Below, one piece after another: positions 33,405 to 54,422 of a stretch of DNA of 64,000 bases. The position numbers and the translations under genes were made by a program. This DNA comes from an uncultured Eubacteriales bacterium. Its GTDB lineage: Bacteria; Bacillota; Clostridia; Christensenellales; CAG-138. The notes under the pieces are model-generated. The model saw nothing but the letters and a program-made list of their open reading frames with translations. It made no database searches and had not been told where the DNA came from. The stretch lies in the NCBI GenBank assembly GCA_900319345.1, contig ONNZ01000010.1:12946-76945 (forward strand), written 5' to 3'. Position 1 is the stretch's first letter, and each line of letters starts with the position of its first letter.

Positions 33405-33866
33405 TCAGCGTTTTGCCGTCAGCATGCCCCGCAGGTCGTAGATGGCGTGGCGGGGGCACTTCACGGCGCACATGCCGCAGGAGAGGCACAGGCTTTCGTC
33501 GATAGAGGATAGATCGTCCGTCACCTTCGCCGCACCGGAGGGGCACACCTTTTCGCAGATGCCGCAGCCGATGCAGGACACCTGGCAGGCGGTCCGGGCC
33601 ACCTTGCCCGGGTCCCGGTTGGAGCACTTGACAACGATGGGGCAGTTCGGGTCGTGGAGTTTTATAATCTCCTGGGGGCAGGCGTCCGTGCAGGCCCCGC
33701 AGCCCAGGCACAGGCTCTCGTCCACCTCCGCCACGCCGCAGTCGTTGAGGACGATGGCGTCGGCGGGGCAGACGGACACGCAGGCTGCGCAGCCGATGCA
33801 GCCGTAGCCGCAGCTGTCGTTCCGGCAGCCGCCGTTGCAGGCCACCAATGCAATCCGCTTCACCAT
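33405..33866 (-). CDS. Polyferredoxin (four 4Fe-4S motifs)
   Basis: 153 aa with four CxxCxxCxxxCP motifs and an extra N-terminal Cys cluster. Its start abuts the stop codon of the hydroxylase gene. Confidence 0.8.
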   Translation of the reverse strand: MVKRIALVACNGGCRNDSCGYGCIGCAACVSVCPADAIVLNDCGVAEVDESLCLGCGACTDACPQEIIKLHDPNCPIVVKCSNRDPGKVARTACQVSCIGCGICEKVCPSGAAKVTDDLSSIDESLCLSCGMCAVKCPRHAIYDLRGMLTAKR

Positions 33867-36448
33867 TATCGGGCCCTCCTTTCGTAGGGCGTGTCGTCCA
33901 AAGGCAACTTGGTACGCCGCTGCCCGTCCAGCTGATAGTAGGCCTCCGCGATGGCCGGGGCCGTGGGGATGGAGGTGATCTCCCCGATGCCGATGGCCCC
34001 GCAGGCCACATCGAGACCCGGTTTATCTACCACGATGGCTTTGATCTCGGGTATCTCGTGGGCCCGAAACAGACCCAGCTTGCCGAACTTGTCGATGGGC
34101 TTGCAGTTGTCGTCAATGGGGTACTGCTCCCGGAGGGCGTAGCCCATGCTCATGACCACGCCGCCCTCGATCTGCCCCTCGCAGGATTTGGGGTTCACGG
34201 CCTTGCCCACGTCGTGGACCGCCACCATGAACTCGATCTTGCCGGTCTTTCGATCCAGCACACACATCTGGGTGGCGTAGCCGTAGGCCACGTGGGATAC
34301 GGGGTGGGGCACGTCGGCCCCCAGCTTGTCGGTCTTGGCGAGATACTCCCCGTAGAATACTTCACCGTTCAGCTCCTGCAGCGTCCGGGTCTTCAGGGCC
34401 TCCGTCAGCTTTTCGCAGGCCCGGCGGCAGGCTTCGCCGGTGATAAGCGTTTGGCGGGAACCGGAGGAGTCGCCGGAGTCCGGAGCGATCCAGGTGTTGG
34501 AGCGCTCGTAGACGATGTCGTCTCGATGAAGGGGGGTGTTGGTCACCACCATCTGGACGAGGACGGTCCCAAGACCCTGGCCGATGCAGGAGGCGCCGGC
34601 GTAGATATGGACCTTGGCGTCCGCCTCCACGATGAGCTTGCACCGGCCCCAGTCCGGGAGCCCCACGCCCACGCCGGAGTTCTTCATGGCGGAGGCCAGG
34701 CCCACCGGCTTCCCGGCGGCCACGGCGGCGTCGTAGTAGGGCTTGATGGCCTCCAACGTCTCCACGAGACCCGTCTCAGGCCCCACGATCTGGCCGTTGG
34801 GCAGCTCCTGCCCGGGGCGGATGGCGTTCCTGTAGCGGATCTCCCAGGGGGAGATGCCGATCTTTTCCGCCATTTCATTGAGCAACGATTCGATGGCGAA
34901 GCAGGTCTGGGTCACGCCGAAGCCCCGGAAGGCCCCGGCGGGGGGATTGTTGGTGTAGTAGGCCGTGCCCTCGATCTCGAAGTTCTGGTAGTTGTAGGGG
35001 CCGGAGGCGTGGGTACAGGCCCGCTCCAGCACAGGGCCACCCAGGGAGGCGAAGGCGCCAGTGTCGGAGTAGACGGAGGCCTTCACGCCCTGGATGATGC
35101 CGTTTTCGTCGCAGCCGATGGTAAAATCCATCCAGAAGGGGTGGCGCTTGGGGTGGATGAGGAGGCTCTCCGCCCGGCTCAGCTTCACCTTTACGGCCCG
35201 GCCGGTCAGGTAGGTGATGAGGGCCGCGTGATGCTGGACCGTCATGTCCTCCTTGCCGCCGAAGCCGCCGCCCACCAGCTGGTTCTGGACCCGGACCTTG
35301 TCGCTGCCCAACAGGATCTTGCACTCGTGGAGGGTGGTGTGGGAGGACTGGTCCGTGGAGAGGACGCGCACGTACCCGTCCTCGTCCATATACGCCACGG
35401 CGCACTCGGGCTCCAGGAAGGCGTGCTCCGTCCAGGGGGTCTCAAAGTGCTTGGAGATCACGTATTTCGATTTGGCGATGGCCCCCGTGGCGTCGCCCCG
35501 GCTCACGTGCTTGTAGGCCTGGACGTTGTTTTCCTCCTCGTCGAAGACCCGAGGGGCGTCGGGGGCCTTGGCCTCCTCAGGACCGTGGACGGCGGGTAAG
35601 GGCTCGTAGGTCACCTTCACCAGCTTCTTGGCCTTCTCCAATGTCTCCTGATCCTCCGCCACCACCAGGGCGATGGGGTCCCCCAGCCAGTGGGTCAGGC
35701 CCCCCACGGGGATGAGGGAGTATTGGTCGTGCTTGATATGGCCCACCTTGTTCTCCCCGGGGATGTCCTGGGCGGTGAGCACCGCCACCACCCCGTGCAG
35801 GGCCTTAGCCTTGCTAATGTCGATTTCCAGGACCCGGGCCCGGGGGTACTGGCTCCGGACCGCGGAGCCGTAGGTCATGCCGGGCAAATACCAGTCGTCC
35901 GGGTACTTGCCGTAGCCCAGCACCTTTTCCTCCACGTCCAGCCGGTGGACGCTGCTGCCCAGCTTCCAATCGGTCTCGGAGGGCTCCGGGATCACGCCCG
36001 CCTTCTTCAGCTTCGCCGCCAGCTCTATGGCTTTGACGATCTTCACGTAGCCTGTGCAGCGGCAGTAGTTGTTGCGGATGGCGTAGCGCATCTGCTCCTC
36101 CGTGGGGTCCTCCACCTTGTCGAGGAGGGCCTTGGTGCAGAGGACCATGCCCGGGATGCAGAAGCCGCATTGAACGGCCCCGGCCTCCCCGTAGGCGTAG
36201 GTGTAGAGCTTCTTCTCAAAGTCGGAAAGCCCCTCCACGGTGAGCACGTGCTTGCCCTCCAGACTGTCCGTTTTCGGCACGCAGGCCCGGCAGGTCTCCC
36301 CGTCGATGATCACGGTGCAGGCCCCGCAGGCTCCCTCGGAACAGCCGTCCTTCACGGAGGTGAGCTGGAGCTCGTCCCGCAAAAACCGCAGCAGGGTCTG
36401 GTTCTTCTTAGCCGTGACCGCCTGTCCGTTCACAAAGAATGTAGCCAT
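33866..36448 (-). CDS. Selenium-dependent-type molybdenum hydroxylase (xanthine dehydrogenase family) with a fused N-terminal 2Fe-2S domain
   Basis: 860 aa. It has the 2Fe-2S motifs CSEGACGACTV and QCGFCIPG...NYCRCTGY, followed by a large aldehyde-oxidase/XDH molybdopterin-binding region. It is flanked by ygfK and ssnA homologues. Confidence 0.8.
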   Translation of the reverse strand: MATFFVNGQAVTAKKNQTLLRFLRDELQLTSVKDGCSEGACGACTVIIDGETCRACVPKTDSLEGKHVLTVEGLSDFEKKLYTYAYGEAGAVQCGFCIPGMVLCTKALLDKVEDPTEEQMRYAIRNNYCRCTGYVKIVKAIELAAKLKKAGVIPEPSETDWKLGSSVHRLDVEEKVLGYGKYPDDWYLPGMTYGSAVRSQYPRARVLEIDISKAKALHGVVAVLTAQDIPGENKVGHIKHDQYSLIPVGGLTHWLGDPIALVVAEDQETLEKAKKLVKVTYEPLPAVHGPEEAKAPDAPRVFDEEENNVQAYKHVSRGDATGAIAKSKYVISKHFETPWTEHAFLEPECAVAYMDEDGYVRVLSTDQSSHTTLHECKILLGSDKVRVQNQLVGGGFGGKEDMTVQHHAALITYLTGRAVKVKLSRAESLLIHPKRHPFWMDFTIGCDENGIIQGVKASVYSDTGAFASLGGPVLERACTHASGPYNYQNFEIEGTAYYTNNPPAGAFRGFGVTQTCFAIESLLNEMAEKIGISPWEIRYRNAIRPGQELPNGQIVGPETGLVETLEAIKPYYDAAVAAGKPVGLASAMKNSGVGVGLPDWGRCKLIVEADAKVHIYAGASCIGQGLGTVLVQMVVTNTPLHRDDIVYERSNTWIAPDSGDSSGSRQTLITGEACRRACEKLTEALKTRTLQELNGEVFYGEYLAKTDKLGADVPHPVSHVAYGYATQMCVLDRKTGKIEFMVAVHDVGKAVNPKSCEGQIEGGVVMSMGYALREQYPIDDNCKPIDKFGKLGLFRAHEIPEIKAIVVDKPGLDVACGAIGIGEITSIPTAPAIAEAYYQLDGQRRTKLPLDDTPYERRAR

Positions 36449-36457
36449 AGTCCTCCT

Positions 36458-39406
36458 TTAGACCAGCAGGTAGGGGTAGTCCTTCAGCACTGTCAGGATC
36501 AGCACCTCAATGTCCTTGTCGAGATCGTTCTCCTTGGCGAGGTCGTATTTCTTCTCCGCCCCGTTCAGCCGGACCTTCACCTGCTTCCGCTTCAGGCTGG
36601 TCACGCAGAAGCCCTGGTTGGTGCTGTCCGCGAAGTCCTTCTCGTTTTCGAACAGGGTGAACTTGTCCTTGTAGGGCCGGGAGGCGTAGGGGCAGAAGGA
36701 GGCGCAGTTGCCGCACTCGTTGCAGAGGTAGTCGAGGTGCAGAATCTGGGGCTCCTTTTTGCCCGGCACCCGGATGGCGGCGTTAGCCCGGTTGGGGCAC
36801 ACGGACACGCAGTTTTCGCAGAGCTCGTTGCAGTGCATGCACACGTCCTCCGGGTCGCCCTCAAGCTTCACCAGGCTCTTGCGCTCCACGAGCTTCCCTT
36901 CGCTCACCTCGGCGCCCTTGGGCAGGGCGTAGGACCGGGCCTCGCCCACGATGGCCTCCGTGGCCGCCAAGGCGTCCGCCATGGCCTCCACCACGGTAGC
37001 AGGGCCCCGCCGGGCGTCGCCCAGGACGAAGATCTTCCCATTCCGCAGCACGGGCCGCCCCTTCTCGTTGAGACCGGCGCCGTAGGAGAGGAGCAGGTCG
37101 GTGTCCACCTTCTCGCCCAGGGAGGCGATGAGGTTGGAGCAGGGGAGGGAGACCTCCTCGCCCGTGTCCACCGGGCTCCGGCGGCCGGAGGCGTCCGGCT
37201 CGCCCAGGACCATACGATGGCAGAGCAGGCTCTCCCCGTCGGCCTTCACGGGAGCCAGCAGCTCCTTGAACTGCACGCCCTCCTTCAGAGCGAGGAGCAT
37301 CTCCTCCTCATCGGCGGGCATGTACTTCTTGGTGCGGCGGTAGACGATGGACACGTCCTTCACACCGGGCACCCGCAGGGCCGCCCGGGCGCAGTCCATG
37401 GCCGTGTTGCCCGCGCCGATGATGATCACGTGTTCGCCCAGCTCCACCGGGTCATTCCGCTTCAAGGCCTTTAAGAAATCGATGGCGTTGTATTCCTTCC
37501 CGCCGATGTCCAGCCGGGAGGCCTTCTCCGCGCCCACGGCCAGCAGGATGTAGTCATACTCCTTCTCGAGCTCGCTCAATGCGGGGGCGGGAGCGCCCAG
37601 CACGAAGGTGGCTCCCAGGGAGGAGATCAGCTTCACGTCCCGGTCGATAGCCGCCGCCGGGATGCGGAAGGCGGGGATCACGTGGCGGACGGTTCCGCCC
37701 AGCTCCTTCTCCTTCTCGAACACGGTGACCTTAGCCCCGGCCCGGGTGAGATAGAAGGCCGCCGCCATGCCCGCGGGGCCGCCGCCGATGACGGCCACCT
37801 TGGCCTTCGTCAGATGCTCCTTCTTCACGCCCCGAGCCATGAGAGCGCCGAAGCCCTTCCGGGCGGCGGTGAGCTTCGCCTTGCGGATGTTCACGCTCTC
37901 GTCGTAGAAGTTCCGGGTGCAGCGGCTCATGCAGGGATGGGCGCAGATGGTGCCCGTGATGAAGGGCAGGGCGTTCTTTTCCGTAATGAGCTTCAATGAT
38001 TCAGGATACTTGCCCTTCTCGTTCAGGGCCAGGTAGCCGGGGATGTCCTGATGGATGGGGCAGCCGCCCTGGCAGGGGGCCGTGAAGCAGCTCAATAGGG
38101 GCACCTGCTCCTGGCTCTTGCGGCTGGTCAGGGGCTTGATGGGCTTGCGGTGGTGCACGTCCTGGGCCGCCTTGTCGGAGAGGGCCCGGACCGCGGCGGG
38201 GTTCACGCCCGTGAAGGGCTTGTAGGCGCAGCGGGAGACCTCGTCGGCCAGCTCCCTGAACCGGTCGTAGCCGCCGGGCTTCAGGATGGTGGTGGCCACG
38301 GTGATGGGCCAGATGCCCGCCCTAAAGAGGGCCTTCAGGTTGAAGGCGTCCGCGCCGCCGGAGAAGGACAGCCGAAGCTTCCCGTCGAACTCCTCCGCCA
38401 TGCGGGCGGCCATCTCGATGGTCAACAGGTACAGGGACTTGCCGCTCATGTACATCTCCTCGCTGGGGAGCTCGCCCGCCTTCACGTCCACGGGGCAGGT
38501 GTTGCTGAGCTTCAGGCCGAAGGAGACGCCGTTGTCCGCCGCCAGCTTGATAAGCCGGTGGAACATGGGCACCGCGTCCTTGTACTGCAGATCCTCCCTG
38601 AAGTGGTGATCGTCGAAGGACACGTAGTCGAACCCGGCTTCATTGAGGCGCTTCCGGGCGAAGTCGTAGCCCAAAATGGTGGGGTTGCACTTCACCAGGG
38701 TGTGGAGCTTCTTTTCGGTGATGAGGTAGCTGGCGATACTCTCGATCTCCTGGGGCGGGCAGCCGTGGAGGGTGGATATGGTGACGCTGGTACAGATATG
38801 GGGGTCGATGCCGTCGATGTATTCGGCAAGCTCCGGCAACTGCTTTTTGGCTTCTTTGATAGCTTTCTGGAACGCTTCCGTCCGGGAGGCGTCCTTCATG
38901 CCCTCGATGAAGGCGTCGATCTTCTCCGTCTTGATCCCGGCCAGGTCGTAGCCCACGCTCATGTTGAACATGAACCCGTTGGGGTCCCCGAGATGCCAGA
39001 GCTTAGAGATGATCTTGATGATGACGTAGGCGTTCACGTACTCCGTAAAGGCCTGGGGCACGGTGAGCTCCGTGGACCATTCGCAGTTGTAGCCCTCGTC
39101 GTCCGCCTTGATGCAGGGCCGGCTGATGCACCGGGCCAAATCCTCGCCGTCCATCTTCTGCACCGTCTTCAGCTCGAAGAACCGGGCCCCGGTGAAGTAC
39201 CCGGCCACGATGTTCTCCGAAAGCTGGGTGTTGGGCCCGGCGGCGGGGCCGAAGGGGGTCTCGATCCGCCCGCCGAACAGGGGCAGCCCCGGCCGCTCCG
39301 CCTCGTACTTGGCGTGGACGCCGAAGACGGTGCCCTCCTGGGTGTACTCCGTCAGCACCCGGTAGAGGAGCTTGTCAAAGGGAATGGGATTCATCCGTTC
39401 GCTCAT
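36458..39406 (-). CDS. ygfK: YgfK-like FAD/NAD(P)H and Fe-S oxidoreductase
   Basis: 982 aa. It has a DPD-like barrel region, the dinucleotide motifs [13 protein letters not shown] and [10 protein letters not shown], and C-terminal CxxCxxCxxxCP motifs ([18 protein letters not shown]). Confidence 0.8.
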
Positions 39407-39427: not shown

Positions 39428-40768
39428 TTATCCGTTGTAGCTGTCGAGGGCCTTCCAGAGCTTCACGCTCTCCTCCATGGTGTGGGCGTTGATCGCTTCC
39501 TCGTCGATGCCCACCAGCTTCCGATCCTGCATGAGGATGCGGCCCGCGCACATGGTGAACTCGCACTGGCGGCCCGTCATACCGAAGATCATATGGCCGT
39601 CGATGTTGTCCCCGGAGAAGGGGGAGAAGGGCTTGTAGTCCATGACGATCACGTCGGCAGCGTAGCCCTCCTTGAGCTTCCCCAGCCGATCGGGGAAGTA
39701 CTTCGAAGCGATCTTCGCGTTGTTCTCAAAGAGCATCTTGGTCACCTCGCCCCAGGCCACGTTGGGCATGCAGGCGTTGTGCCGCTGGATGATGAGGCTC
39801 ACCTTCAACGCTTCCAGCATGTCGAAGGTGTAGCTGTCGGTGCCCATGCCCACCAGGATGTCCTTGGCCATCATCTGGCGGATGGGGGAGCAGCCCACGG
39901 CGTTGCCCATGTTAGATTCCGCGTTGTTGCAGACCATGGTCTTGGTGTCCCGGATGATGTCCATCTCGCCGCTGTTCACGTGGATGCAGTGGCCCAGCAT
40001 GGTCTTTTCGCCCAAAATGCCGTTGTTCAGCAGCCGGTTCACGGACCGGGTGCCGTAGTTCAGGGCGGAGTCGTACACGTCGTTGAGCCCTTCGGACACG
40101 TGGATGTGGTAGCCGGTCCGGCCGTTATTGGCTTTCTGCATCTTCTCGAAGGTTTTGTCCGAGATGGTGAACAGGGCGTGGCCGCCGAACATGGCGGCGA
40201 TCATGGGATCGGGGTCCTTTTCACAATGGGTGATGAAGTTGGCGTTCTCCTCGATGGCCTCGTCGCACTTCTTCTCCCCGTCCCGCTCGGACACCTCGTA
40301 ACAGAGGCAGGCCCGGACGCCCAGCTCTTTAGCCACCTTCTCGATCTCGAAGAGGGAGCCGGAGATGGCCTTGTAGCTGGCGTGGTGGTCGAAGATGGTG
40401 GTGCAGCCGGTCTTGATGCCGTCGATGATGGTGGTGTAGGCGCTGGCTCGGGTGCCCTCGAGGGTCAGGTTACGATCGATGGCCCACCACATGCCGTCCA
40501 AGATCTCGTAGAAGTTGGTGGGGTTGAAGCCCTTGATGGAAAGGCCCCTTGCGAGGGCGCTGTAGATATGGGAATGGACGTTGATAAACGCGGGCATGAT
40601 GACGCCGCCCTTGGCGTCCACCCGCTTGGCGTCGGGATACGCTTTTTCCAGCTCGACCCGGGGCCCCACGGCCTTGATATACCGCCCGTCCACCAGCACG
40701 GCCCCGTCCGCAAGATAGGGACGCTCTGGGTCCCTGGTGATCACTTTTCCGTTGGTGATGAGAATCAT
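39428..40768 (-). CDS. ssnA: SsnA-like amidohydrolase (chlorohydrolase/deaminase family)
   Basis: 446 aa with the metal-binding HxH motif (INVHSHIY) and SD AGGAGG. It is the first gene of the operon. Confidence 0.75.
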
Positions 40769-40790
40769 GACTGTCCTCCTTCAAGAATGG

Positions 40791-40836
40791 ATTTTAAAAA
40801 CAGCGCGGGCCAAACACAAGGTCTGACAGCCCGCGC
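40791..40836 (-). terminator. Leader (attenuator-type) terminator about 25 nt upstream of the ssnA SD
   Basis: On the minus strand: GCGCGGGC...GCCCGCGC (8 bp, extendable by CAGAC/GUUUG), followed by TGTTTTTAAAA. It lies between the predicted promoter and the ssnA SD. Confidence 0.5.
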
Positions 40837-40881
40837 GCGAAGCACTCCCTTACAGCCGAAGATATATACTTTTCCACCCAT

Positions 40882-40911
40882 AGTGTACCACGCCTCCCGG
40901 GCAAAAATCAA
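40882..40911 (-). promoter_or_regulatory. Candidate sigma-A promoter of the ssnA operon
   Basis: On the minus strand: TTGATT, an 18-nt spacer, then an extended -10 TGgTACACT. Confidence 0.45.
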
Positions 40912-40970
40912 GGCTTGGGCCAGAAATCAAAAAATGATTTGGCAACCTAACATTTTTTTGCATATTCGCA

Positions 40971-40998
40971 TTGCAATTCCCCACAGGTGTGATATACT
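40971..40998 (+). promoter_or_regulatory. Candidate sigma-A promoter of the ygeY operon
   Basis: TTGCAA, a 16-nt spacer, then an extended -10 TGaTATACT. It lies about 35 nt upstream of ATG 41033. Confidence 0.5.
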
Positions 40999-41032
40999 GC
41001 CAATGTACCCAAGTATAGGTAGGAGGTTGCGT

Positions 41033-42409
41033 ATGGATTACACGAAGATCAAAGAAGCGGCCCAAGCGTATCTGCCGGCCATGACCAAGTTTCTCCGGGA
41101 CCTGATCGCCATCCCCAGCGAGAGCTGCGAGGAGGAGGGCGTGGTGAAGCGCACCATCGCCGAGATGGAAGCCCTGGGCTTCGACAAGGCCGAGATCGAC
41201 CCTGAAGGCAACGCCCTTGGCTGGATGGGCACCGGTGAGAAGATCATCGCCTTCGACGGCCATATCGACACCGTGGGCATCGGCAACATCGCCAACTGGG
41301 AGCACGATCCCTACGAGGGCTACGAGACCGACGACATTATCTACGGTCGCGGCGGCTCCGATCAGGAGGGCGGCGTGGTCTCCGCCGTGTACGGCGCCAA
41401 GATCATGAAGGACCTCGATTTGATCCCCGAGGGTTACAAGATCCTGGTGGTCGCCTCCGTCCAGGAGGAGGACTGCGACGGCCTCTGCTGGCAGTACATC
41501 CATAAGGAAGACGGCATCACCCCCGAGTTCGTGGTCTCCACCGAGCCCACCGACGGCGGCATCTATCGCGGCCACCGGGGCCGCATGGAGATCCGGGTGG
41601 ACGTCCGCGGCGTCTCCTGCCACGGCTCCGCCCCCGAGCGCGGCGACAACGCCATCTACAAGATGGCCGACATCCTGCAGGACGTTCGCGCCCTCAACGA
41701 GAACGCCGCCACCGACGCGGACGAGATCAAGGGCCTTGTAAAGATGCTGGACCCCAAGTACAATCCCGAGCACTATGAGGACGCCCGCTTCCTGGGCCGG
41801 GGCACCATCACCGCCTCCCAGATCTTCTACACCTCGCCCTCCCGCTGCGCCGTGGCCGACTCCTGCGCCGTGTCCCTGGACCGCCGCATGACCGCCGGCG
41901 AGACCTGGGATTCCTGCCTGGACGAGATCAGGAACCTGCCCGCCTGTAAGAAGTACGCCAAGGACGTGCAGGTCTCCATGTACATGTACGATCGGCCCGC
42001 TTGGACCGGCCTCAAGTACGAGACCGAGTGCTATTTCCCCACCTGGATCAACAAGGAGACCGCCCCCCACGTGCAGGCTCTCGCCGACGCCCACAAGGCC
42101 CTCTTCGGCGAGGAGCGCATCGGCAGCCCCACGGCCATGGACAAGCGCCGTCGGCCCCTTATCGACAAGTGGACCTTCTCCACCAACGGCGTGTCCATCC
42201 AGGGCCGCTACGGCATCCCCTGCGTAGGCTTCGGCCCAGGTGCCGAGTCCCAGGCCCACGCCCCCAACGAGATTACCTGGAAGCAGGACTTGGTCACCTG
42301 CGCCGCCCTCTACGCGGCCGTGCCCATGAACTACCATCCCGAGAACAGCACCGGCGACGTGACCGTCTACCGGGCCGGGAAGACCGACACCAAGTTCGCC
42401 AACGACTAA
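41033..42409 (+). CDS. ygeY: YgeY-like M20-family hydrolase
   Basis: 458 aa counted from ATG 41033 (SD AGGTAGGAGG). It has the M20 metal-ligand contexts [10 protein letters not shown] and [11 protein letters not shown]. The 961 codons upstream in the track ORF are antisense to ygfK/ssnA. Confidence 0.75.
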
Positions 42410-42443
42410 GCTTACCACCAACACTATTTTATCAGGAGGCAAC

Positions 42444-43658
42444 ATGAGCAACGTCAAAAAGTACACCGACAAACTGGATCAGCTGAAGTTCGACAACATG
42501 TACAACGGCGACTTTTTCCTGACCTGGGAAAAGACGGACGACGAGATCGCGGCCGTGTTCACCGTGGCCGACGCCCTCCGGCATCTGCGTGAAAACAACA
42601 TCTCCACCAAGATCTTCGACTCAGGCCTGGGCATCTCCCTGTTCCGCGACAATTCCACCCGCACCCGCTTCTCCTTCGCCTCCGCCTGCAACCTGCTGGG
42701 CATCGAGGTCCAGGATCTGGACGAGGGCAAGAGCCAGATCGCCCATGGCGAGACCGTCCGGGAGACCGCCAACATGATCTCCTTCATGGCGGACGTGATC
42801 GGCATCCGGGACGACATGTACATCGGCAAGGGCAACACCTACATGCATAACGTGGTGAACGCCGTCACCGAGGGCAACAAGGCGGGCGTGCTGGAGCAGA
42901 AGCCCACGCTGGTCAACCTCCAGTGCGACATCGACCATCCCACCCAGTGCATGGCGGACATGCTCCACTGCATCCACACCCTGGGCGGCAGCGACGATCT
43001 CGGCGAAGCGATCCAAAACCTGAAGGGCAAGAAGGTGGCCATGACCTGGGCCTACAGCCCCTCCTACGGCAAGCCCCTGTCCGTGCCCCAGGGCGTGGCA
43101 GGCCTGTTCACCCGGTTTGGCATGGACGTGACCTTGGCCTATCCCGAGGGCTACGAGATCATGGACGACGTGGTGAAGGTGGCGGAGGAGAACTGTAAGA
43201 AGTCCGGCGCCAAGTTCACCATTACCCACGACATGAAGGAAGCCTTCAAGGACGCCGACATTGTCTACCCCAAGTCCTGGGCCCCCTACAAGGCCATGGA
43301 GGAGCGCACCGAGCTCTATGGGAAGGGCGACCTGGAGGGCATCAAGGCTCTCGAAAAGCGGCTCCTCGCTCAGAATGCGGAACACAAGGACTGGGAATGC
43401 ACCGAGGAGATGATGAAGCTCACGAAGGACGGCAAGGCCCTGTACCTCCACTGCCTGCCCGCGGACATCACGGACGTCTCCTGCGAGGCCGGCGAGGTGG
43501 CCGCCTCCGTCTTCGACCGGTATCGCGATCCCCTCTACAAGCAGGCCTCCTTCAAGCCCTACATCATCGCCGCCATGATCTTCCTCGCCAAGGTGAAGGA
43601 CCCCGCGGCTAAGCTCCTGGAGCTCGAGAAGAACAACGTGAAGCGCTGGAATGCGTAA
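42444..43658 (+). CDS. ygeW: YgeW-like (knotted) carbamoyltransferase, substrate unknown
   Basis: 404 aa with the motifs STRTRFSF, DHPTQCMAD and HCLPAD. Its size and extra insertions fit YgeW rather than OTC/ATC. Confidence 0.8.
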   Translation: MSNVKKYTDKLDQLKFDNMYNGDFFLTWEKTDDEIAAVFTVADALRHLRENNISTKIFDSGLGISLFRDNSTRTRFSFASACNLLGIEVQDLDEGKSQIAHGETVRETANMISFMADVIGIRDDMYIGKGNTYMHNVVNAVTEGNKAGVLEQKPTLVNLQCDIDHPTQCMADMLHCIHTLGGSDDLGEAIQNLKGKKVAMTWAYSPSYGKPLSVPQGVAGLFTRFGMDVTLAYPEGYEIMDDVVKVAEENCKKSGAKFTITHDMKEAFKDADIVYPKSWAPYKAMEERTELYGKGDLEGIKALEKRLLAQNAEHKDWECTEEMMKLTKDGKALYLHCLPADITDVSCEAGEVAASVFDRYRDPLYKQASFKPYIIAAMIFLAKVKDPAAKLLELEKNNVKRWNA

Positions 43659-43682
43659 TATATTTCTGAAAGGAATACGAAC

Positions 43683-45155
43683 ATGATCGATCTTACCATC
43701 CATCCGGAAGCCCTGGAACGGAACGTCGAAGTGGCCCGCAAGAACCACATCATCCTGCCCACCTTCGAGCAGATGAAGCACCCCGAGCTGATCCCCGATA
43801 AGGTGAAGGAAGCTCTGAAGAACGTGGGTCTCTGGGACGTGAACCCCCTGAACTTGTTCCGCATCACCTGGCACAACGAGCCCGTCATGAACGGCGGCCA
43901 GTTCGGCGGCGTCAACTACATCGAGCTGCCCAGCTCCCTGACCGGCGTCAAGGCCCGCATCTTCTGCCTCATCGGCAAGTGGTTCCCCACGGGCTGCCAC
44001 AAGGTGGGCGCGTCCTACGGCTGTTTGGTGCCCCGCCTGGTCACCGGCCAGTTCGACGCCACCTACAACAAGGCCGTCTGGCCCTCCACCGGCAACTACT
44101 GCCGGGGCGGCGCCTTCAACAGCAAGCTCCTCGCGTGCGAGAGCGTAGCCATCCTGCCCGCCGAGATGAGCAAGGAACGGTTCGACTGGCTCAGCAAGAT
44201 CGCCGGCGAGGTCATCGCCACCCCCGGTTGCGAGAGCAACGTGAAGGAGATCTTCGACAAGACCTGGGAGCTGCGCCGCACCCGGGACGACGTGGTCATC
44301 TTCAACCAGTTCGAGGAGATGGGCAACTGCATCTGGCACTACCAGGTCACCGGCAACGCCATCGCCGAGGTCTTTGAAACGATCAAGGGCGAGGGCGACC
44401 GTCTGGCGGGCGCCTGCTTCACCAGTGGTTCCGCCGGCACCATGAGCGCGGGCGACCTGCTGAAGGAGAAGTACCCCCACCTGAAGCTGGCCGTGGGCGA
44501 GGCGCTCCAGTGCCCGACCCTCCTCGAGAACGGGTTCGGCGGCCACCGCATCGAGGGCATCGGCGACAAGCACGTGCCCTGGATCCACAACGTGAAGAAC
44601 ACCGACATGGTCATCGACATCGACGACGACGACTCCCAGAACCTGCTGCGCCTCTTCAACAGTGAGGAGGGCAAGAAGTACCTGGTGGAGAAGGCCGGCG
44701 TCCCCGCCGAGACCGTGGAGCAGCTGTCCCTCATGGGCATCTCCGGCATCGCCAACATGCTCTGCTGCATCAAGATGGCCAAGTACTACGAGCTCACCGA
44801 GCACGACATCGTGGCCACCGTCTGCACCGACTCCGCCATCATGTACGAGAGCCGCATCAAGGAGCTGGACGAGCAGCAGGGCGCCTACTCCGAGCTGGCC
44901 GCTGCCTACGACTTCGCCAAGCACCTGCAGGGCGTCCGCACCGACGCCATGCTGGAGCTCTCCTACCAGGATCGTAAGCGCATCCACAACCTGAAGTATT
45001 ACACCTGGGTGGAGCAGCAGGGCAAGACCTACGAGGAGATCAATCAGCAGTGGTACGACGAGCATTACTGGACCGACATGCACGAGCAGGCGGCCGATCT
45101 CGATAAGCTCATCAACGCCTTCAACGAGAAGACCGGCGTCCTGGCCGAGCTGTAA
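43683..45155 (+). CDS. Fold-type II PLP-dependent enzyme (cysteine-synthase/TrpB-like), function unknown
   Basis: 490 aa with a candidate PLP lysine in FPTGCHKVGASYG and a Gly-rich phosphate loop (TSGSAGT). Confidence 0.55.
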   Translation: MIDLTIHPEALERNVEVARKNHIILPTFEQMKHPELIPDKVKEALKNVGLWDVNPLNLFRITWHNEPVMNGGQFGGVNYIELPSSLTGVKARIFCLIGKWFPTGCHKVGASYGCLVPRLVTGQFDATYNKAVWPSTGNYCRGGAFNSKLLACESVAILPAEMSKERFDWLSKIAGEVIATPGCESNVKEIFDKTWELRRTRDDVVIFNQFEEMGNCIWHYQVTGNAIAEVFETIKGEGDRLAGACFTSGSAGTMSAGDLLKEKYPHLKLAVGEALQCPTLLENGFGGHRIEGIGDKHVPWIHNVKNTDMVIDIDDDDSQNLLRLFNSEEGKKYLVEKAGVPAETVEQLSLMGISGIANMLCCIKMAKYYELTEHDIVATVCTDSAIMYESRIKELDEQQGAYSELAAAYDFAKHLQGVRTDAMLELSYQDRKRIHNLKYYTWVEQQGKTYEEINQQWYDEHYWTDMHEQAADLDKLINAFNEKTGVLAEL

Positions 45156-45160
45156 GGGCC

Positions 45161-46402
45161 ATGAAGCGGGTATTAGGCTATCGCTGCACCCTCTGCGGGC
45201 AGGAGTTCCCCTTCGAGCCGGAGCGGTACACCTGCCCCCACTGCGGGGAAAAGGGCATCCTGGACATCGTCTACGACTATGGCGAGGTCAAGAAGGTCCT
45301 GACCCGGGAGACTTTGGCAGCCAACCGGGACAACAGCATGTGGCGGTATCGGGCCCTCATGCCCGTGGCGGACACCACGGACGTGAGCCGGTTCCTCCGC
45401 ATCGGCTGGTCGCCCCTCTATGAGTCCAGGAAGCTCCGGGACGAGCTGGGCTTGAAGGCCCTCTACATCAAGGACGACGGCATCAACCCCACGGCCTCCC
45501 TGAAGGATCGTGCCTCCGGCGTAGCCGTCGCCAAGGCCATCGAGCTGGGCTACGACACCATCTCCTGTTCCTCCACCGGCAACGCGGCCTCCTCCTGCGC
45601 GGGGAGCGCCGCCCGGATGGGCCTCAAGGCGGTCATCTTCGTGCCCAAGCGGGCCCCCCAGGGGAAGGTGGCTCAGCTCATGATCTTCGGCGCCCGCCTG
45701 GTGGTGGTGGACGGGGACTATGAGCAGACCTTCGAGCTCTCCCGTGCGGCCATCGAGAAGTACGGCTGGTACAACCGGAACGCAGGCATCAACCCCGTCA
45801 TGAGCGAGGGGAAGAAGACCGTGGCCATGGAGATCGCCGAGCAGCTTAACTTTCAGGTCACCGACTGGGTGGCCTGCTCCGTGGGCGACGGCTGCACCAT
45901 CGGCGGCGTGTACACCGGCTTCAAGGACCTCTACGAGCTGGGCATCATCGACCGGATTCCCCGCATCCTGGGCGTCCAGTCCACGGGCTGCTGCCCCTTC
46001 GTCAACGCGGACAAGGTGCCCGGCCACGAGCTGGTGCCCACCCCCGAGGAGACGTTGGCCGACTCCATCTCCGTGGGCGTGCCCCGGAACCCGAAGAAGG
46101 CCCAGCGGGCGGTCTACGCCTCCGACGGCCGCTGGATCGCCGTCAGCGACGACGACATCCTGAACGCCATGCGGCTCCTTGGTCGGAACGAGGGCGTGTT
46201 CTCCGAGCCCGCCGGGGCCACCGCCACCGCGGGCGTGAAGGCCGCTATGGAGCAGGGGATCATCCGTTCCCATGAGACCGTCACCGTCATCAGCACGGGC
46301 AGCGGCCTCAAGGACACGGCCAACGCCCTGAAGGCAGCCGGAAAACCATATATTTGTGCGCCATCACTGGACGCGCTGGAAAAAAGTGGTATACTCAAGT
46401 AA
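45161..46402 (+). CDS. Threonine-synthase/cysteate-synthase-family PLP enzyme with an N-terminal zinc ribbon
   Basis: 413 aa with a CxxC...CxxC ribbon (CTLCGQEF...CPHCGE) and the PLP lysine motif NPTASLKDRAS. It starts 5 nt after the previous gene. Confidence 0.7.
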   Translation: MKRVLGYRCTLCGQEFPFEPERYTCPHCGEKGILDIVYDYGEVKKVLTRETLAANRDNSMWRYRALMPVADTTDVSRFLRIGWSPLYESRKLRDELGLKALYIKDDGINPTASLKDRASGVAVAKAIELGYDTISCSSTGNAASSCAGSAARMGLKAVIFVPKRAPQGKVAQLMIFGARLVVVDGDYEQTFELSRAAIEKYGWYNRNAGINPVMSEGKKTVAMEIAEQLNFQVTDWVACSVGDGCTIGGVYTGFKDLYELGIIDRIPRILGVQSTGCCPFVNADKVPGHELVPTPEETLADSISVGVPRNPKKAQRAVYASDGRWIAVSDDDILNAMRLLGRNEGVFSEPAGATATAGVKAAMEQGIIRSHETVTVISTGSGLKDTANALKAAGKPYICAPSLDALEKSGILK

Positions 46403-46426
46403 GAAATCAATACAGGAGGTTCATTC

Positions 46427-47515
46427 ATGAAATACGGTCGTGTGTATAACTTTTCTGCCGGTCCCGCCATCATGCCGGAGCCTGTTCTGGAGGAGATCCG
46501 GGACGAGATGATGAACTACCGCGGCAGCGGCATGTGCGTCATGGAGATGTCCCATCGGTCCAAGGTCTTTCAGCAGATCATCGACGAGGCTGAGGCGGAC
46601 CTTCGCACCCTCATGGGCATCCCCGACAACTACAAGGTCCTCTTCATCCAGGGCGGAGCCACCCTCCAGTTCGCCATGATCCCCATGAACCTGATGAAGA
46701 ACGGCAAGGCCGTCTACATCGAGACCGGCGCCTGGTCCAAGAAGGCCATCGCCGAGGCGAAGAAGTACGGTGAGGTGATCGTGGCCGCGTCCAGCAAGGA
46801 CAGGAACTACGCCTACATCCCCGACTGCTCCGATCTCGACATCCCCGAGGATGCGGATTACGTCTACATCTGCGAGAACGAGACCATCCACGGCACCACC
46901 TGGCACAAGCTCCCCAACACCAAGGGCCACATTCTGGTGTCCGACCAGAGCTCCATGTTCCTGTCCCGCCCCTGCAACGTGGCTGATTACGGCCTCATCT
47001 ACGGCGGCGTCCAGAAGAACATCGGTCCCGCGGGCCTCGCTATCGTCATCATCCGCGAGGACCTGATCCGGGAGGACATCGATCCCAAGACCCCCATCTA
47101 CATGCGCTACGACACCCACTCGAACAACGGCAGCATGTACAACACCCCCAACTGCTGGGCCATCTACGTCTGCGGCAAGGTCTTCAAGTACCTGCTGAAG
47201 AACGGCGGTCTCGAGCATATGGCGGCGGTCAACGAAGCTAAGGCCAAGGTCATGTACGACTTCCTGGATGCGTCCAAGATGTTCCAGGGCACCGTGGACA
47301 AGAAGGATCGTTCCCTCATGAACATCCCCTTCGTCACCGGCGACAAGGACAAGGACGCTGCGGTCGTGGCGGCCACCAAGGCGGCCGGGTTCGACAACCT
47401 GAAGGGCCACAAGAGCGTGGGCGGCCTTCGGGCGTCCGTGTACAACGCCATGCCCATCGAGGGCGTGGAGGCCCTGGTGGAGTTCCTGAAGAAGTACGAA
47501 GCGGAGAACGCGTAA
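46427..47515 (+). CDS. serC: Phosphoserine aminotransferase
   Basis: 362 aa with the N-terminal NFSAGPA motif and a class V aminotransferase pattern. SD AGGAGG is present. Confidence 0.9.
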   Translation: MKYGRVYNFSAGPAIMPEPVLEEIRDEMMNYRGSGMCVMEMSHRSKVFQQIIDEAEADLRTLMGIPDNYKVLFIQGGATLQFAMIPMNLMKNGKAVYIETGAWSKKAIAEAKKYGEVIVAASSKDRNYAYIPDCSDLDIPEDADYVYICENETIHGTTWHKLPNTKGHILVSDQSSMFLSRPCNVADYGLIYGGVQKNIGPAGLAIVIIREDLIREDIDPKTPIYMRYDTHSNNGSMYNTPNCWAIYVCGKVFKYLLKNGGLEHMAAVNEAKAKVMYDFLDASKMFQGTVDKKDRSLMNIPFVTGDKDKDAAVVAATKAAGFDNLKGHKSVGGLRASVYNAMPIEGVEALVEFLKKYEAENA

Positions 47516-47530
47516 GGAGGATATTTCGGA

Positions 47531-48451
47531 ATGATCAAGATTCTTGCGTCTGACGGTATGGAAAAGGGCGCGGTGGCCGCGCTGGAAGCCAAGGGTTGCC
47601 AGGTGGATCAGCAGTTCTACGATCCCGAAGCCCTGAAGGAAGCCGTAAAGAACTACGACGTGCTGGTGGTCCGGTCCGCCACCAAGGTCCGCGCCCCCCA
47701 CATCGACGCGGCCAAGGAAGCGGGCAAGCTGAAGCTGGTCATCCGCGGCGGCGTGGGCGTGGACAATATCGACGTGAAGTACGCCGAGGCTAACGGCATC
47801 ACCGTCCGCAACACCCCCCGTGCCAGCTCCCAGTCCGTGGCAGAGCTCGCCATGGGCCACATGTTCGCCTGCGCCCGGTTCCTGTCCATCGCCGGTCACA
47901 CCATGCGGGAGGACAAGTGGGAGAAGAAAGCCTACGCCAAGGGCATCGAGCTCCAGGGCAAGACCCTGGGCATCATCGGCTTCGGCCGCATCGGCCAGCA
48001 CCTGGGCGTCATGGCCAAGGCCATCGGCATGAAGGTCGTGGCTTTCGATATCTTCCACATCCCCGGCATCGAGGAGCAGCTGGGCATCAACTATGTGGAG
48101 ATGGACGAGCTTTTGGCTGAGTCCGACTTCATCAGCGTCCATGCCCCCGCGGTGGACGGCGGCGCCATCATCAACGCCGACACCATCGCCAAGATGAAGG
48201 ATGGCGTGTGCATCATCAACACCAGCCGCGGCGCCAATCTCGACGAGGACGCCCTGCTGGCCGCCCTGGAGTCCGGCAAGGTCCGGGCCGCGGGCCTCGA
48301 CGTATACGCCTCCGAGCCCGCCCAGAACAAGGCCCTCTACAGCCACCCCATGGTGTCCTGCACGCCCCACATCGGCGCCTCCACGGTGGAAGCCCAGAAG
48401 CGCATCGGCCAGGAGATCGTGGACATCATCACCAAGCAGTTCGAGCTGTAA
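47531..48451 (+). CDS. serA: D-3-phosphoglycerate dehydrogenase (short form)
   Basis: 306 aa with the NAD motif GIIGFGRIGQ and 2-hydroxyacid dehydrogenase catalytic contexts (SRG...D, TPHIG). Confidence 0.85.
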   Translation: MIKILASDGMEKGAVAALEAKGCQVDQQFYDPEALKEAVKNYDVLVVRSATKVRAPHIDAAKEAGKLKLVIRGGVGVDNIDVKYAEANGITVRNTPRASSQSVAELAMGHMFACARFLSIAGHTMREDKWEKKAYAKGIELQGKTLGIIGFGRIGQHLGVMAKAIGMKVVAFDIFHIPGIEEQLGINYVEMDELLAESDFISVHAPAVDGGAIINADTIAKMKDGVCIINTSRGANLDEDALLAALESGKVRAAGLDVYASEPAQNKALYSHPMVSCTPHIGASTVEAQKRIGQEIVDIITKQFEL

Positions 48452-52238: not shown

Positions 52239-53279
52239 ATGGAAAAAGAAACGGTAAAGTTGACGAAGCTCAGCAAATGCGCAGGCTGCGGGGCCAAGGT
52301 GGGGGCCGGGGTGCTGGCTCAACTGCTGCAGGATATAAAGGTCCATTCCGATCCGAACCTGCTGGTGGGCTTCGACCACAGCGACGACGCTTCGGTCTAT
52401 AAGATTTCAGATGAACTTGCCCTGGTCCAGACCGTGGATTTCTTCCCGCCCATCGCCGACGATCCCTATCTGTTCGGGCAGATCGCCGCCACCAACGCCC
52501 TCTCCGACGTGTACGCCATGGGCGGGGAACCCAAGCTCTGTCTCAACATCATGGCGGTCCCGGAGAAGATGCCCATGGACGCGGTCCACGACATCCTGCG
52601 GGGCGGGTACGATAAGGTCTATGAAGCAGGGGCGCTGATCACCGGGGGCCACAGCATCCACGACGACGAGCCAAAATACGGCCTGGCGGTCACCGGCTTC
52701 GTGCATCCGGACCGGGTGCTGACCAACTCAGGGGCGAAACCCGGGGACGTACTTTTTCTTACCAAGCCTTTGGGCATCGGTATCCTCAGCACCGCGGCCA
52801 AGGCGGACATGGTCAGCGAGGAGGGGCAGCGGCGGATGTTCGAGCTCATGACCACCCTGAACCGTTCCGCCCGGGACGTGATGGTGAAGTATGACGTCCA
52901 CGCCTGTACGGATGTGACGGGCTTCGGCCTCATGGGCCATTGCTTCGAGATGATGGAGGGCAGCGACACCCAGGCCGTCATATACACCGAGGCCCTCGAT
53001 CTTATCCCGGAGGCCAGGGAGTTGGCGAAATATGGCCTGATCCCCGCTGGCGCCTACCGCAATCGTACCTTTGCGGAGAAAGCGGTGGAGCTCACCGGGA
53101 TCGAGCTCTGCGTCCAGGACATGCTCTTCGACCCCCAGACCTCCGGCGGGCTGCTGATCGCCTGCGCCTCGGTGGATGCTGACAGGATGTATGAGGAATT
53201 GAAAAAGACCGTCCCCAGCGCGCAGCGCATCGGAACGGTCCAAAAATACGAGGGCGGCAAACGCATCTTCCTGCGCTGA
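52239..53279 (+). CDS. selD: Selenide, water dikinase (selenophosphate synthetase), Cys-type
   Basis: 346 aa. The N-terminal active-site loop is LSKCAGCGAKVG (Cys, no in-frame TGA), and the protein has the PurM-like fold pattern. Confidence 0.9.
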   Translation: MEKETVKLTKLSKCAGCGAKVGAGVLAQLLQDIKVHSDPNLLVGFDHSDDASVYKISDELALVQTVDFFPPIADDPYLFGQIAATNALSDVYAMGGEPKLCLNIMAVPEKMPMDAVHDILRGGYDKVYEAGALITGGHSIHDDEPKYGLAVTGFVHPDRVLTNSGAKPGDVLFLTKPLGIGILSTAAKADMVSEEGQRRMFELMTTLNRSARDVMVKYDVHACTDVTGFGLMGHCFEMMEGSDTQAVIYTEALDLIPEARELAKYGLIPAGAYRNRTFAEKAVELTGIELCVQDMLFDPQTSGGLLIACASVDADRMYEELKKTVPSAQRIGTVQKYEGGKRIFLR

Positions 53280-54422
53280 TCAGGCCAGGGCGCGGATGGC
53301 GGCAACGGCCGCGTCCACATCCGCTTCGGTGTTGGCATATCCCAGGGAGAAGCGGACCGTGCCCTTGGGGAAAGTGCCCAGGCTCCTGTGGGCTGAGGGG
53401 GCGCAGTGGAGGCCGCAGCGGATCAGGATGCCGAAGCGCTGCTCCAGCTCGAAGGAAACGGCGGCGTTGTCCCGATCCAGGAAGTCCAGGGAGAGGACGC
53501 CCACCCGGTTTTCCATGCCGGTGGGGCCGCACAGGCGCACCCGGGGGATGCCCTGTATGCCCTCCAAAAAACGCTTCGTCAGCTCGACTTCGTGGGCTCG
53601 AAGGGCGTCGATGCCCCGTTCTGAAATATAAGTCATGGCCGCTTCCCAGCCGTAGATGCCGGGCAGATTCATGGTGCCGGATTCGAACCGGTCCGGCAGA
53701 TATTCGGGCAAATACTCGCTGTCGGAAACGCTGCCCGTGCCCCCGGCGATAAGTGGGGTCAGGTTTCTCGCCATGTCCTCCGTCAGCAGCAGAGCGCCGA
53801 TGCCGGAAGGCCCCAGCAGGCCCTTGTGGCCCGGGACGGACAGGGCGCTGAGCTGGAATCGACCGAAGTCCAGGGGAAAGTGCCCCGCGGTCTGGGCCCC
53901 GTCCAGGGCAAAGGGGATGCCGTACTGGGCGGCGATAGCGCCGACGGCTTCCGCGTCCTGGACCGAACCGGACACATTGGAGCCGTGGTTAATCAGGATC
54001 AGTTTGGTGTTGGGGCGGACGAGCCTATCGATGTCGTCGGAGTCGATGAACCCTTCTCTATCTGCAGGGAGCCGATCGAAGCTGACGTCAGGCATCTGCA
54101 GCAGCGGCCGCATGACGGCGTTGTGCTCCATGCTGCTGACGATCACATGGTCCCCCGGGTGGAGATATCCTTTGAGGAGGAAGTTCAGACCATAGGTGTT
54201 GCCCGGGGTCAGGATCACATGGGTGGCCTTCTCCGGGAAATGGAAGAAGCGCTTGAGCTGTTCTCGGAGGGACAGGGTGACCAGCTCCGCCTCCTGAGCG
54301 TTCTGGTAGACGGAACGATTGAGAGGCGCGCCCACCTCGTTGAGATAGCGTACCATGGCCTTTGCCACCGCTTCCGGCTTCGGGAAGGAGGTGGCGGCGT
54401 TGTCAAGATAGATCGTGTTCAT
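53280..54422 (-). CDS. Class V aminotransferase, cysteine desulfurase / selenocysteine lyase-like
   Basis: 380 aa with an N-terminal YLDNAATS motif and the PLP lysine motif SVPGHKGLLGP. Its stop codon abuts the selD stop codon (TGATCA). Confidence 0.75.
   Translation of the reverse strand: MNTIYLDNAATSFPKPEAVAKAMVRYLNEVGAPLNRSVYQNAQEAELVTLSLREQLKRFFHFPEKATHVILTPGNTYGLNFLLKGYLHPGDHVIVSSMEHNAVMRPLLQMPDVSFDRLPADREGFIDSDDIDRLVRPNTKLILINHGSNVSGSVQDAEAVGAIAAQYGIPFALDGAQTAGHFPLDFGRFQLSALSVPGHKGLLGPSGIGALLLTEDMARNLTPLIAGGTGSVSDSEYLPEYLPDRFESGTMNLPGIYGWEAAMTYISERGIDALRAHEVELTKRFLEGIQGIPRVRLCGPTGMENRVGVLSLDFLDRDNAAVSFELEQRFGILIRCGLHCAPSAHRSLGTFPKGTVRFSLGYANTEADVDAAVAAIRALA

Follow-up and report, generated by a model that had tools for sequence, protein, structure and literature searches.

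An ssnA RNA motif (RF03031) overlapping an intrinsic terminator ahead of a reductive uric-acid degradation operon: a candidate transcriptional ON switch

The stretch of DNA analysed here (the window, 64,000 nucleotides in length) contains an operon that begins with ssnA and is preceded by a leader carrying a strong hairpin. The locus raises the question of whether this leader controls the operon and, if it does, what it responds to and how the signal reaches the genes. The first-pass annotation saw in it the architecture of a conditional terminator, and proposed either an attenuator or an unrecognised riboswitch. The question is approached here from the genes, the family membership of the leader RNA, its distribution, its predicted fold and the competition of that fold with the terminator.

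The operon lies on the minus strand. Its first gene, ssnA (39428..40768), encodes an aminohydrolase that scores 624 bits against the NCBIfam SsnA equivalog model NF005540 (cut-off 444), and the second, ygfK (36458..39406), encodes an Fe-S flavoprotein (TIGR03315 Se_ygfK, 1245 bits). A gene of the selenium-dependent xanthine dehydrogenase (XDH) family (33866-36448; TIGR03311 Se_dep_XDH, 1197 bits) and a 4Fe-4S ferredoxin gene (33405-33866; Pfam Fer4), both also on the minus strand, are the distal operon genes in this genome (33405..36448). A divergent operon on the plus strand (41033-48451) opens with ygeY and ygeW and also encodes two PLP-fold enzymes (43683-45155 and 45161-46402), an aminotransferase of class V and a 2-hydroxyacid dehydrogenase. 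The annotated part of this region contained no recognisable canonical hyuA or ygeX. Nearby are a SelD-like AIRS protein (52239-53279), which fits a supply of selenium cofactor, and a second class-V aminotransferase (53280-54422).

The genes of the ssnA operon and the divergent ygeY and ygeW belong to the reductive (2,8-dioxopurine) pathway of uric-acid degradation, which was elucidated in 2025. XdhD/DOPDH converts urate to 2,8-dioxopurine, and in gut bacteria YgfK and SsnA act on this compound together, dearomatising it reductively and opening its ring (PMC12507026; bioRxiv 10.1101/2025.04.24.650524). The homologous cluster of C. sporogenes is inducible by uric acid (bioRxiv 10.1101/2025.04.24.650524). 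An RNA element is mentioned in neither of the two pathway papers, one of which calls regulation poorly understood (PMC12507026; bioRxiv 10.1101/2025.04.24.650524).

The layout of the leader is largely as the first-pass annotation described it. A sigma-70-type promoter is read on the minus strand at 40882..40911, with a -35 hexamer TTGATT (40911-40906), an 18-nt spacer, a TG dinucleotide (40890-40889) and a -10 hexamer TACACT (40887-40882), so that it is of the extended -10 type (TGgTACACT, 40890-40882). It was left unlisted by a consensus promoter scanner that needs 9 of 12 matching positions, since it has 8, yet in an alignment of 11 close relatives both hexamers and the TG are kept while the spacer sequence varies. 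Transcription of ssnA probably starts near 40875, which gives a leader of about 107 nt up to the ATG at 40768, close to the 110 nt first estimated. The Shine-Dalgarno sequence of ssnA, AGGAGG (40775..40780, minus strand), is invariant among the relatives and lies 22 nt past the end of the hairpin, where about 25 nt had been given. On the other side of the intergenic region, a promoter-like site (TTGCAA-16-TATACT with TG) occupies 40971-40998 of the plus strand and leaves the divergent ygeY, whose ATG is at 41033, with the leader of about 28 nt that had been described.

A direct repeat, TTGATTTnTGsCC, is also present on the minus strand in two copies 19 nt apart (40899-40911 and 40918-40930). 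The downstream copy contains the -35 hexamer, and both copies are kept in close relatives. Its upstream counterpart may serve as a binding site for a transcription factor or as a further -35-like box, in which case there would be control at the promoter besides that in the leader.

The leader element had been called unrecognised, and this does not hold. Positions 40818..40865 of the minus strand match the Rfam family RF03031 "ssnA RNA" (type Cis-reg) over the full model (positions 1-48 of 48), with 46.7 bits against a gathering score of 37.3 and an E value of 1.2e-9 (cmscan). The match shares the strand of ssnA, within whose 5' leader it lies, and ends 49 nt before the ATG. The element is thus a member of an already catalogued family and is not new as an RNA element; any Rfam-based annotation would label it. 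A scan of the whole window at Rfam gathering thresholds returned two tRNAs and RF03031 and nothing else, and neither the purine riboswitch family RF00167 with its variants nor the NMT1 xanthine/urate class matched at gathering score anywhere in the window. When the region 40600-41150 was scanned permissively (E <= 10), RF03031 was accompanied by four matches at chance level, all of them to unrelated families and none to the purine, NMT1 or any other class of riboswitch, in agreement with the earlier remark that the leader does not resemble the guanine/adenine riboswitch; none of the Rfam models of known protein-binding leaders matched. The motif is present as a single copy. A covariance model built in this analysis (R1) gives it 57.2 bits, and a pattern search with its 28-nt core, tolerating 3 mismatches, hits the window a single time and has no hit in 100 shuffles. 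Neither search found a further copy in the window, for instance before ygeY.

The ssnA RNA was reportedly among 224 candidate structured RNAs presented by Weinberg et al. in 2017. The main text of that paper (PMC5737381) does not mention ssnA. Our literature search found no report of a ligand, ligand binding, regulated termination or validation for ssnA RNA. The "SsnA-associated repeats" of a 2026 preprint were set aside, as they appear to concern a different and unrelated SsnA.

The distribution of the motif was followed with a search anchored on SsnA, taking one genome per species, which gave 80 loci, all from Clostridia. The closest of these are in rumen Clostridiales/Christensenellales metagenome-assembled genomes, at 98% protein identity. 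The core, a fixed-length 28-nt element (GCYGYAAnGnAGUGYnnnGCRCRCGGGC), is found upstream of ssnA on the same strand in 62 of the 80 loci, so that the leader is conserved in orthologous operons, as the conditional-terminator reading had anticipated. A pattern scan of metagenome contigs added 120 further loci. Altogether 183 copies of the core were collected from Clostridia genomes and gut or rumen metagenomes, and 176 are followed by an SsnA open reading frame; of the remaining seven, six are cut by a contig end and one has a miscalled frame. Among the carriers is a cultured isolate, "Candidatus Avoscillospira sp. LCP25S3_F1" (L036). In loci with 7.6 kb or more of sequence downstream, the motif is followed by ssnA-ygfK in 26 of 27 cases, with XDH behind ygfK in only 6 of the 27. 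As XDH is rare and ygfK nearly constant, what the motif regulates throughout is the enzyme pair consuming 2,8-dioxopurine.

The other 18 SsnA loci have no motif within a 3-kb flank, as judged with the covariance model. They are of Mogibacterium, Anaerovoracaceae and other types (among them L041-L043, L049, L053-L055, L058-L060, L063, L064, L067, L070, L075, L079 and L080), and in them ssnA is internal to an operon, mostly or often behind the 3' end of an xdh-like gene. The motif thus belongs to particular clades and is not universal to ssnA, and the lineages without it must regulate ssnA in some other way. Upstream of the motif the neighbours vary: 29 loci have a YheO-like regulator there, 10 have ygeY, and the others have unrelated genes. 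The YheO-like protein, of about 210 amino acids with PAS_6 and HTH_22 domains, is encoded divergently from the ssnA leader (L014-L018, L020 and others) and is likely to be a DNA-binding regulator of the ssnA operon in those lineages. The window copy has no such neighbour and has ygeY in that position.

The folded core of the motif, which would be the aptamer if a small molecule binds, spans 40827..40858 on the minus strand, as drawn from the Rfam alignment and pair counts. Helix P1 joins motif positions 8-12 with 35-39 (window 40858-40854 with 40831-40827), and helix P2 joins positions 21-24 with 30-33 (40845-40842 with 40836-40833) around the loop UUCGC (40841-40837). Between the helices is an asymmetric internal loop, with GUAAGGGA (40853-40846) on the 5' side and a single G (40832) on the 3' side. 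All nine pairs are standard in the window copy and no non-canonical pair was flagged. The consensus loop GUAAnGnA and G34 are present, as are all the invariant columns (G10, C11, G13, A15, A16, G18, A20, G21-G23, G28, C29, C31 and C33-C37). Eighteen of the 48 motif positions are invariant across distant lineages, with the qualification that most metagenome copies come from a search whose pattern presets the conserved columns, and invariance among them is no independent evidence.

Alignment of orthologous leaders, a check proposed with the first reading, gave 83 distinct 48-nt sequences in which 95% of the pair cells are standard-paired. Pair 9-38 is AU in 54, GU in 19, GC in 6, UA in 1, UG in 1 and another combination in 2, and pair 24-30 is CG in 78, UA in 4 and UG in 1. 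Changes on both sides were found in three pairs, and the covariation score was equalled by 1 of 500 shuffles. With so constant a core, in which only three pairs vary informatively, the statistical support is modest; with that reservation, the comparison points to a structured sensor domain that is conserved. For P2 the sequences allow two registers, as positions 21-24 can pair either with 30-33, as in Rfam with a 5-nt loop, or with 28-31, which leaves a 3-nt loop made up of exactly the three variable nucleotides, and both registers have 100% standard pairs. The second register shows no changes on both sides, and the Rfam register, which has one, was retained.

The first-pass annotation also noted a direct repeat, GGCUGU(A/C)AG, with one copy upstream of the terminator stem-loop and one inside it. 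Both copies are real (GGCUGUAAG at 40857-40849 and GGCUGUCAG at 40831-40823), but the second is not preserved as a repeat in relatives, which have GGGCUUAAAC, GGGCCCCUC and similar sequences there. The two copies are best read as the 5' and 3' strands of helix P1 and not as a repeat element; they look alike because GGCU is nearly self-complementary through G-U pairs.

The intrinsic terminator (40796..40836, minus strand) was defined from its inverted repeat and fold energy. Its stem pairs GCGCGGGC (40836-40829) with GCCCGCGC (40810-40803), 8 nt that are 100% complementary in arms 18 nt apart, and a repeat search found no other long inverted repeat in the intergenic region. The 8-bp GC stem is extended by the inner stem CAGAC/GUUUG, as had been noticed, and the hairpin is followed by UGUUUUUAAAA (40802-40792), which begins with the U tract UGUUUUU (40802-40796). 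The hairpin has a predicted energy of -19.7 kcal/mol (z = -3.3), a stability reached by 1 of 1000 shuffles. A role as terminator of an upstream gene was ruled out, as the flanking genes diverge from the region.

The 5' arm of this terminator is exactly motif nucleotides 30-37. As these nucleotides are common to both folds, motif and terminator are mutually exclusive. The motif fold is small and weak, with nine pairs and a predicted -6.6 kcal/mol in the leader, against -21.1 kcal/mol for the terminator. The ensemble computed for the full leader assigns probabilities of 0.98-1.0 to the outer pairs of the terminator and 0 to those of the motif. The much greater stability of the terminator makes OFF (termination) the predicted default state, and with a gap of about 14.5 kcal/mol in the window a switch would need kinetic control.

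The same overlap recurs in relatives. Minimum-free-energy folding of each leader up to its T tract predicts a corresponding overlap of terminator and motif in 53 distinct leaders (71 loci). The terminator loops, inner stems and 3' arms differ by lineage (GCCCGCGC, GGGUUCGUGCG, CCCGUGCGCG, CUGCGCG and others) and the 3' half of the motif is still paired. In leaders with contiguous arms, motif position 32, which is A or G, covaries with its terminator partner (G-C in 19, A-U in 9, G-U in 1). A cruder test, which asked for at least 6 contiguous pairs between the last 10 nt of the motif and a downstream arm before the T tract, was uninformative, as 29 leaders passed compared with 19 +/- 3.6 when the cores were shuffled. 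The case for competition is therefore made from the minimum-free-energy analysis and the covariation at position 32, and from these predicted folds the leader appears to have an expression platform that excludes the sensor fold, in a competition that is apparently conserved rather than incidental. The earlier proposal of a conditional terminator in control of the ssnA-ygfK-XDH operon is thus supported, with the addition that the terminator overlaps a catalogued motif and does so in relatives as well.

A second type of platform is found in loci of the Oscillospiraceae type, where motif and terminator do not overlap directly. It was seen in L034, L045, L047, L056, L061, L082 and about 60 other distinct leaders, each considered over the stretch that begins 15 nt before the motif and ends with the T tract. 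In these a flanking helix, P0 (AGAUUGRUAG with CUAUCAcUC), overlaps P1 at nucleotides 8-10 and shows a double change from U-A to C-G in L098, L100 and L182. P0 has CACUC in common with a middle hairpin (CACUC...GAGUG), and the GAGUG of that hairpin can alternatively make the base of the terminator. When P1 and P2 are enforced in the predicted folds, at a cost of 1.2-7.1 kcal/mol, GAGUG leaves the terminator base and joins the middle hairpin in 32 of 62 leaders, with the opposite change in 1. These models suggest that the second platform gives the same ON logic through a relay of helices. That two unrelated platforms would follow the same logic is the strongest computational argument that formation of P1 and P2 is the regulated event. 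It counts against this explanation that the relay holds in only about half of the predicted second-platform folds.

The two platforms also bear on how the window copy compares with its family. Rfam recognises 17 of 20 sampled loci, scoring the Oscillospiraceae-type copies at 60-70 bits and those of the window's clade at 41-50, so that the window copy, at 46.7 bits, is among the lower-scoring members. It shares with the family both helices, the conserved internal loop, a place upstream of ssnA and an occurrence in Clostridia. It differs in having no P0 (UGRUAG/CUAUCA, reflected in model positions 1-7 and 40-48), the absence of which accounts for the low score, and in having a terminator that overlaps the motif directly instead. 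Three loci (L028, L031 and L035) have the full 28-nt core upstream of ssnA and yet fall under the gathering score; their P1 helices have oddities, either A-G or U-A at pair 9-38 or GCCG replacing GCUG. Rfam annotation therefore misses some genuine members with the direct-overlap platform.

Taken together, our reading is that the leader combines a member of RF03031 with an intrinsic terminator and acts as an ON switch for transcription, with an effector that is most likely a small molecule of the pathway. We give this reading a probability of about 0.6. Transcription from about 40875 would first make the two-helix fold, with P1, the internal loop GUAAGGGA/G and P2. The 3' half of the motif, GCGCGGGC, doubles as the 5' arm of the terminator. 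When the effector is absent, the terminator would form and transcription would stop at the U tract (40802-40796), upstream of ssnA. When the effector is present, it would keep P1 and P2 formed for as long as the polymerase takes to transcribe roughly the next 25 nt, the terminator could not nucleate, and the ssnA-ygfK-XDH-ferredoxin operon would be transcribed. In vivo the effector would thus act in the direction of expression. Induction by uric acid, the substrate, fits such an ON switch.

Several features of the comparison favour a small molecule as the effector: the unpaired core nucleotides are nearly invariant across several families of Clostridia, the platforms differ, the association with the enzyme pair is exclusive and no RNA-binding neighbour is conserved. 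The leading candidates would be 2,8-dioxopurine and urate, on the grounds that the first is consumed by the enzymes under control and the second induces the homologous cluster of C. sporogenes. The more specific proposal, that the ssnA motif is a true metabolite riboswitch with 2,8-dioxopurine (yanthine) or urate as its ligand, is a tentative one that we consider possible but doubtful. It fits the exclusive control of ssnA-ygfK, the ON-switch architecture in two independent platforms and the lack of a conserved protein partner.

The same anatomy could be worked by a protein. HutP, PyrR, proteins of the BglG/SacY type and ANTAR proteins stabilise folds against terminators at their own targets, and an RNA-binding regulator that recognises the hairpin and internal loop could hold the motif fold in the same manner. 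The element is short, its conserved purine-rich internal loop could be a protein site, and an antiterminator hairpin that overlaps a terminator is the architecture that protein antiterminators use. Against this, no RNA-binding regulator gene is conserved beside the motif across the loci and none was found in the annotated neighbourhood of the window copy; the Rfam models of known protein-binding leaders are silent on this leader, and a core that is nearly invariant across families of Clostridia while joined to two unrelated platforms is the usual pattern of metabolite aptamers. Protein-mediated antitermination is, on this evidence, less likely than a small molecule but a real rival to it.

Less probable again is a leader with no specific effector, that is, a fixed partial attenuator or a stabilising 5' structure, in which the motif serves as a processing site or pause site or in a small-RNA function of the terminated transcript. 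This would agree with the full-leader equilibrium ensemble, where the terminator is essentially always formed. It leaves unexplained why the 3' arm of the terminator keeps a compensatory complementarity to the 3' half of the motif, why the same competition appears under a different platform and why 18 of 48 positions are invariant across distant lineages.

Attenuation by translation of a leader peptide is very improbable: a 38-codon open reading frame does run on the minus strand from an ATG at 40881 through the motif and hairpin to a TGA overlapping the ssnA start (40765-40881), but its ATG is 1 nt past the -10 hexamer and upstream of any plausible start site, it has no Shine-Dalgarno sequence, and neither ATG nor frame is conserved even at 95-98% SsnA identity, so that we judge it a chance frame and not an attenuator. 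The leader is just as improbable as a divergent member of a known purine-sensing class (guanine/adenine, the xanthine or 8-oxoguanine variants, or NMT1), which the purine-catabolic gene context might have suggested, for only RF03031 rose above the four chance matches in the permissive scan and the fold is one of two stacked helices, not a three-way junction.

The ON switch responding to a small pathway molecule remains our preferred reading. An orphan motif with ON-switch anatomy, set beside the pathway biochemistry of 2025, yields a short list of candidate ligands. If 2,8-dioxopurine or urate is the ligand, the motif would represent a new ligand class with an aptamer of only about 32 nt, and reductive uric-acid degradation in gut anaerobes would have its first described regulator. 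A candidate that binds would define a new riboswitch class and provide a natural sensor of urate or dioxopurine and a handle on urate removal by gut Clostridia, with a bearing on hyperuricaemia.

Among known systems, the closest in logic is the pbuE (ydhL) adenine riboswitch, a classical transcriptional ON switch built on a three-way junction (RF00167). In both leaders the 3' part of the sensor fold doubles as the 5' arm of the terminator, so that a stabilised fold would lead to read-through. The logic of the genes is alike too, as pbuE handles the purine that is sensed. The candidate aptamer of the ssnA leader differs in being a two-helix rod with an internal loop, to which RF00167 gives no match. 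In size and setting the motif resembles NMT1, which Yu and Breaker reportedly described in 2020 as a xanthine/urate riboswitch. NMT1 is a small hairpin with a conserved internal loop, tied to genes of oxidised-purine metabolism, and the ssnA motif is likewise a small hairpin with an internal loop at oxidised-purine genes. The two differ in their conserved nucleotides, their taxa and their associated genes, the ssnA motif being found exclusively with ssnA-ygfK.
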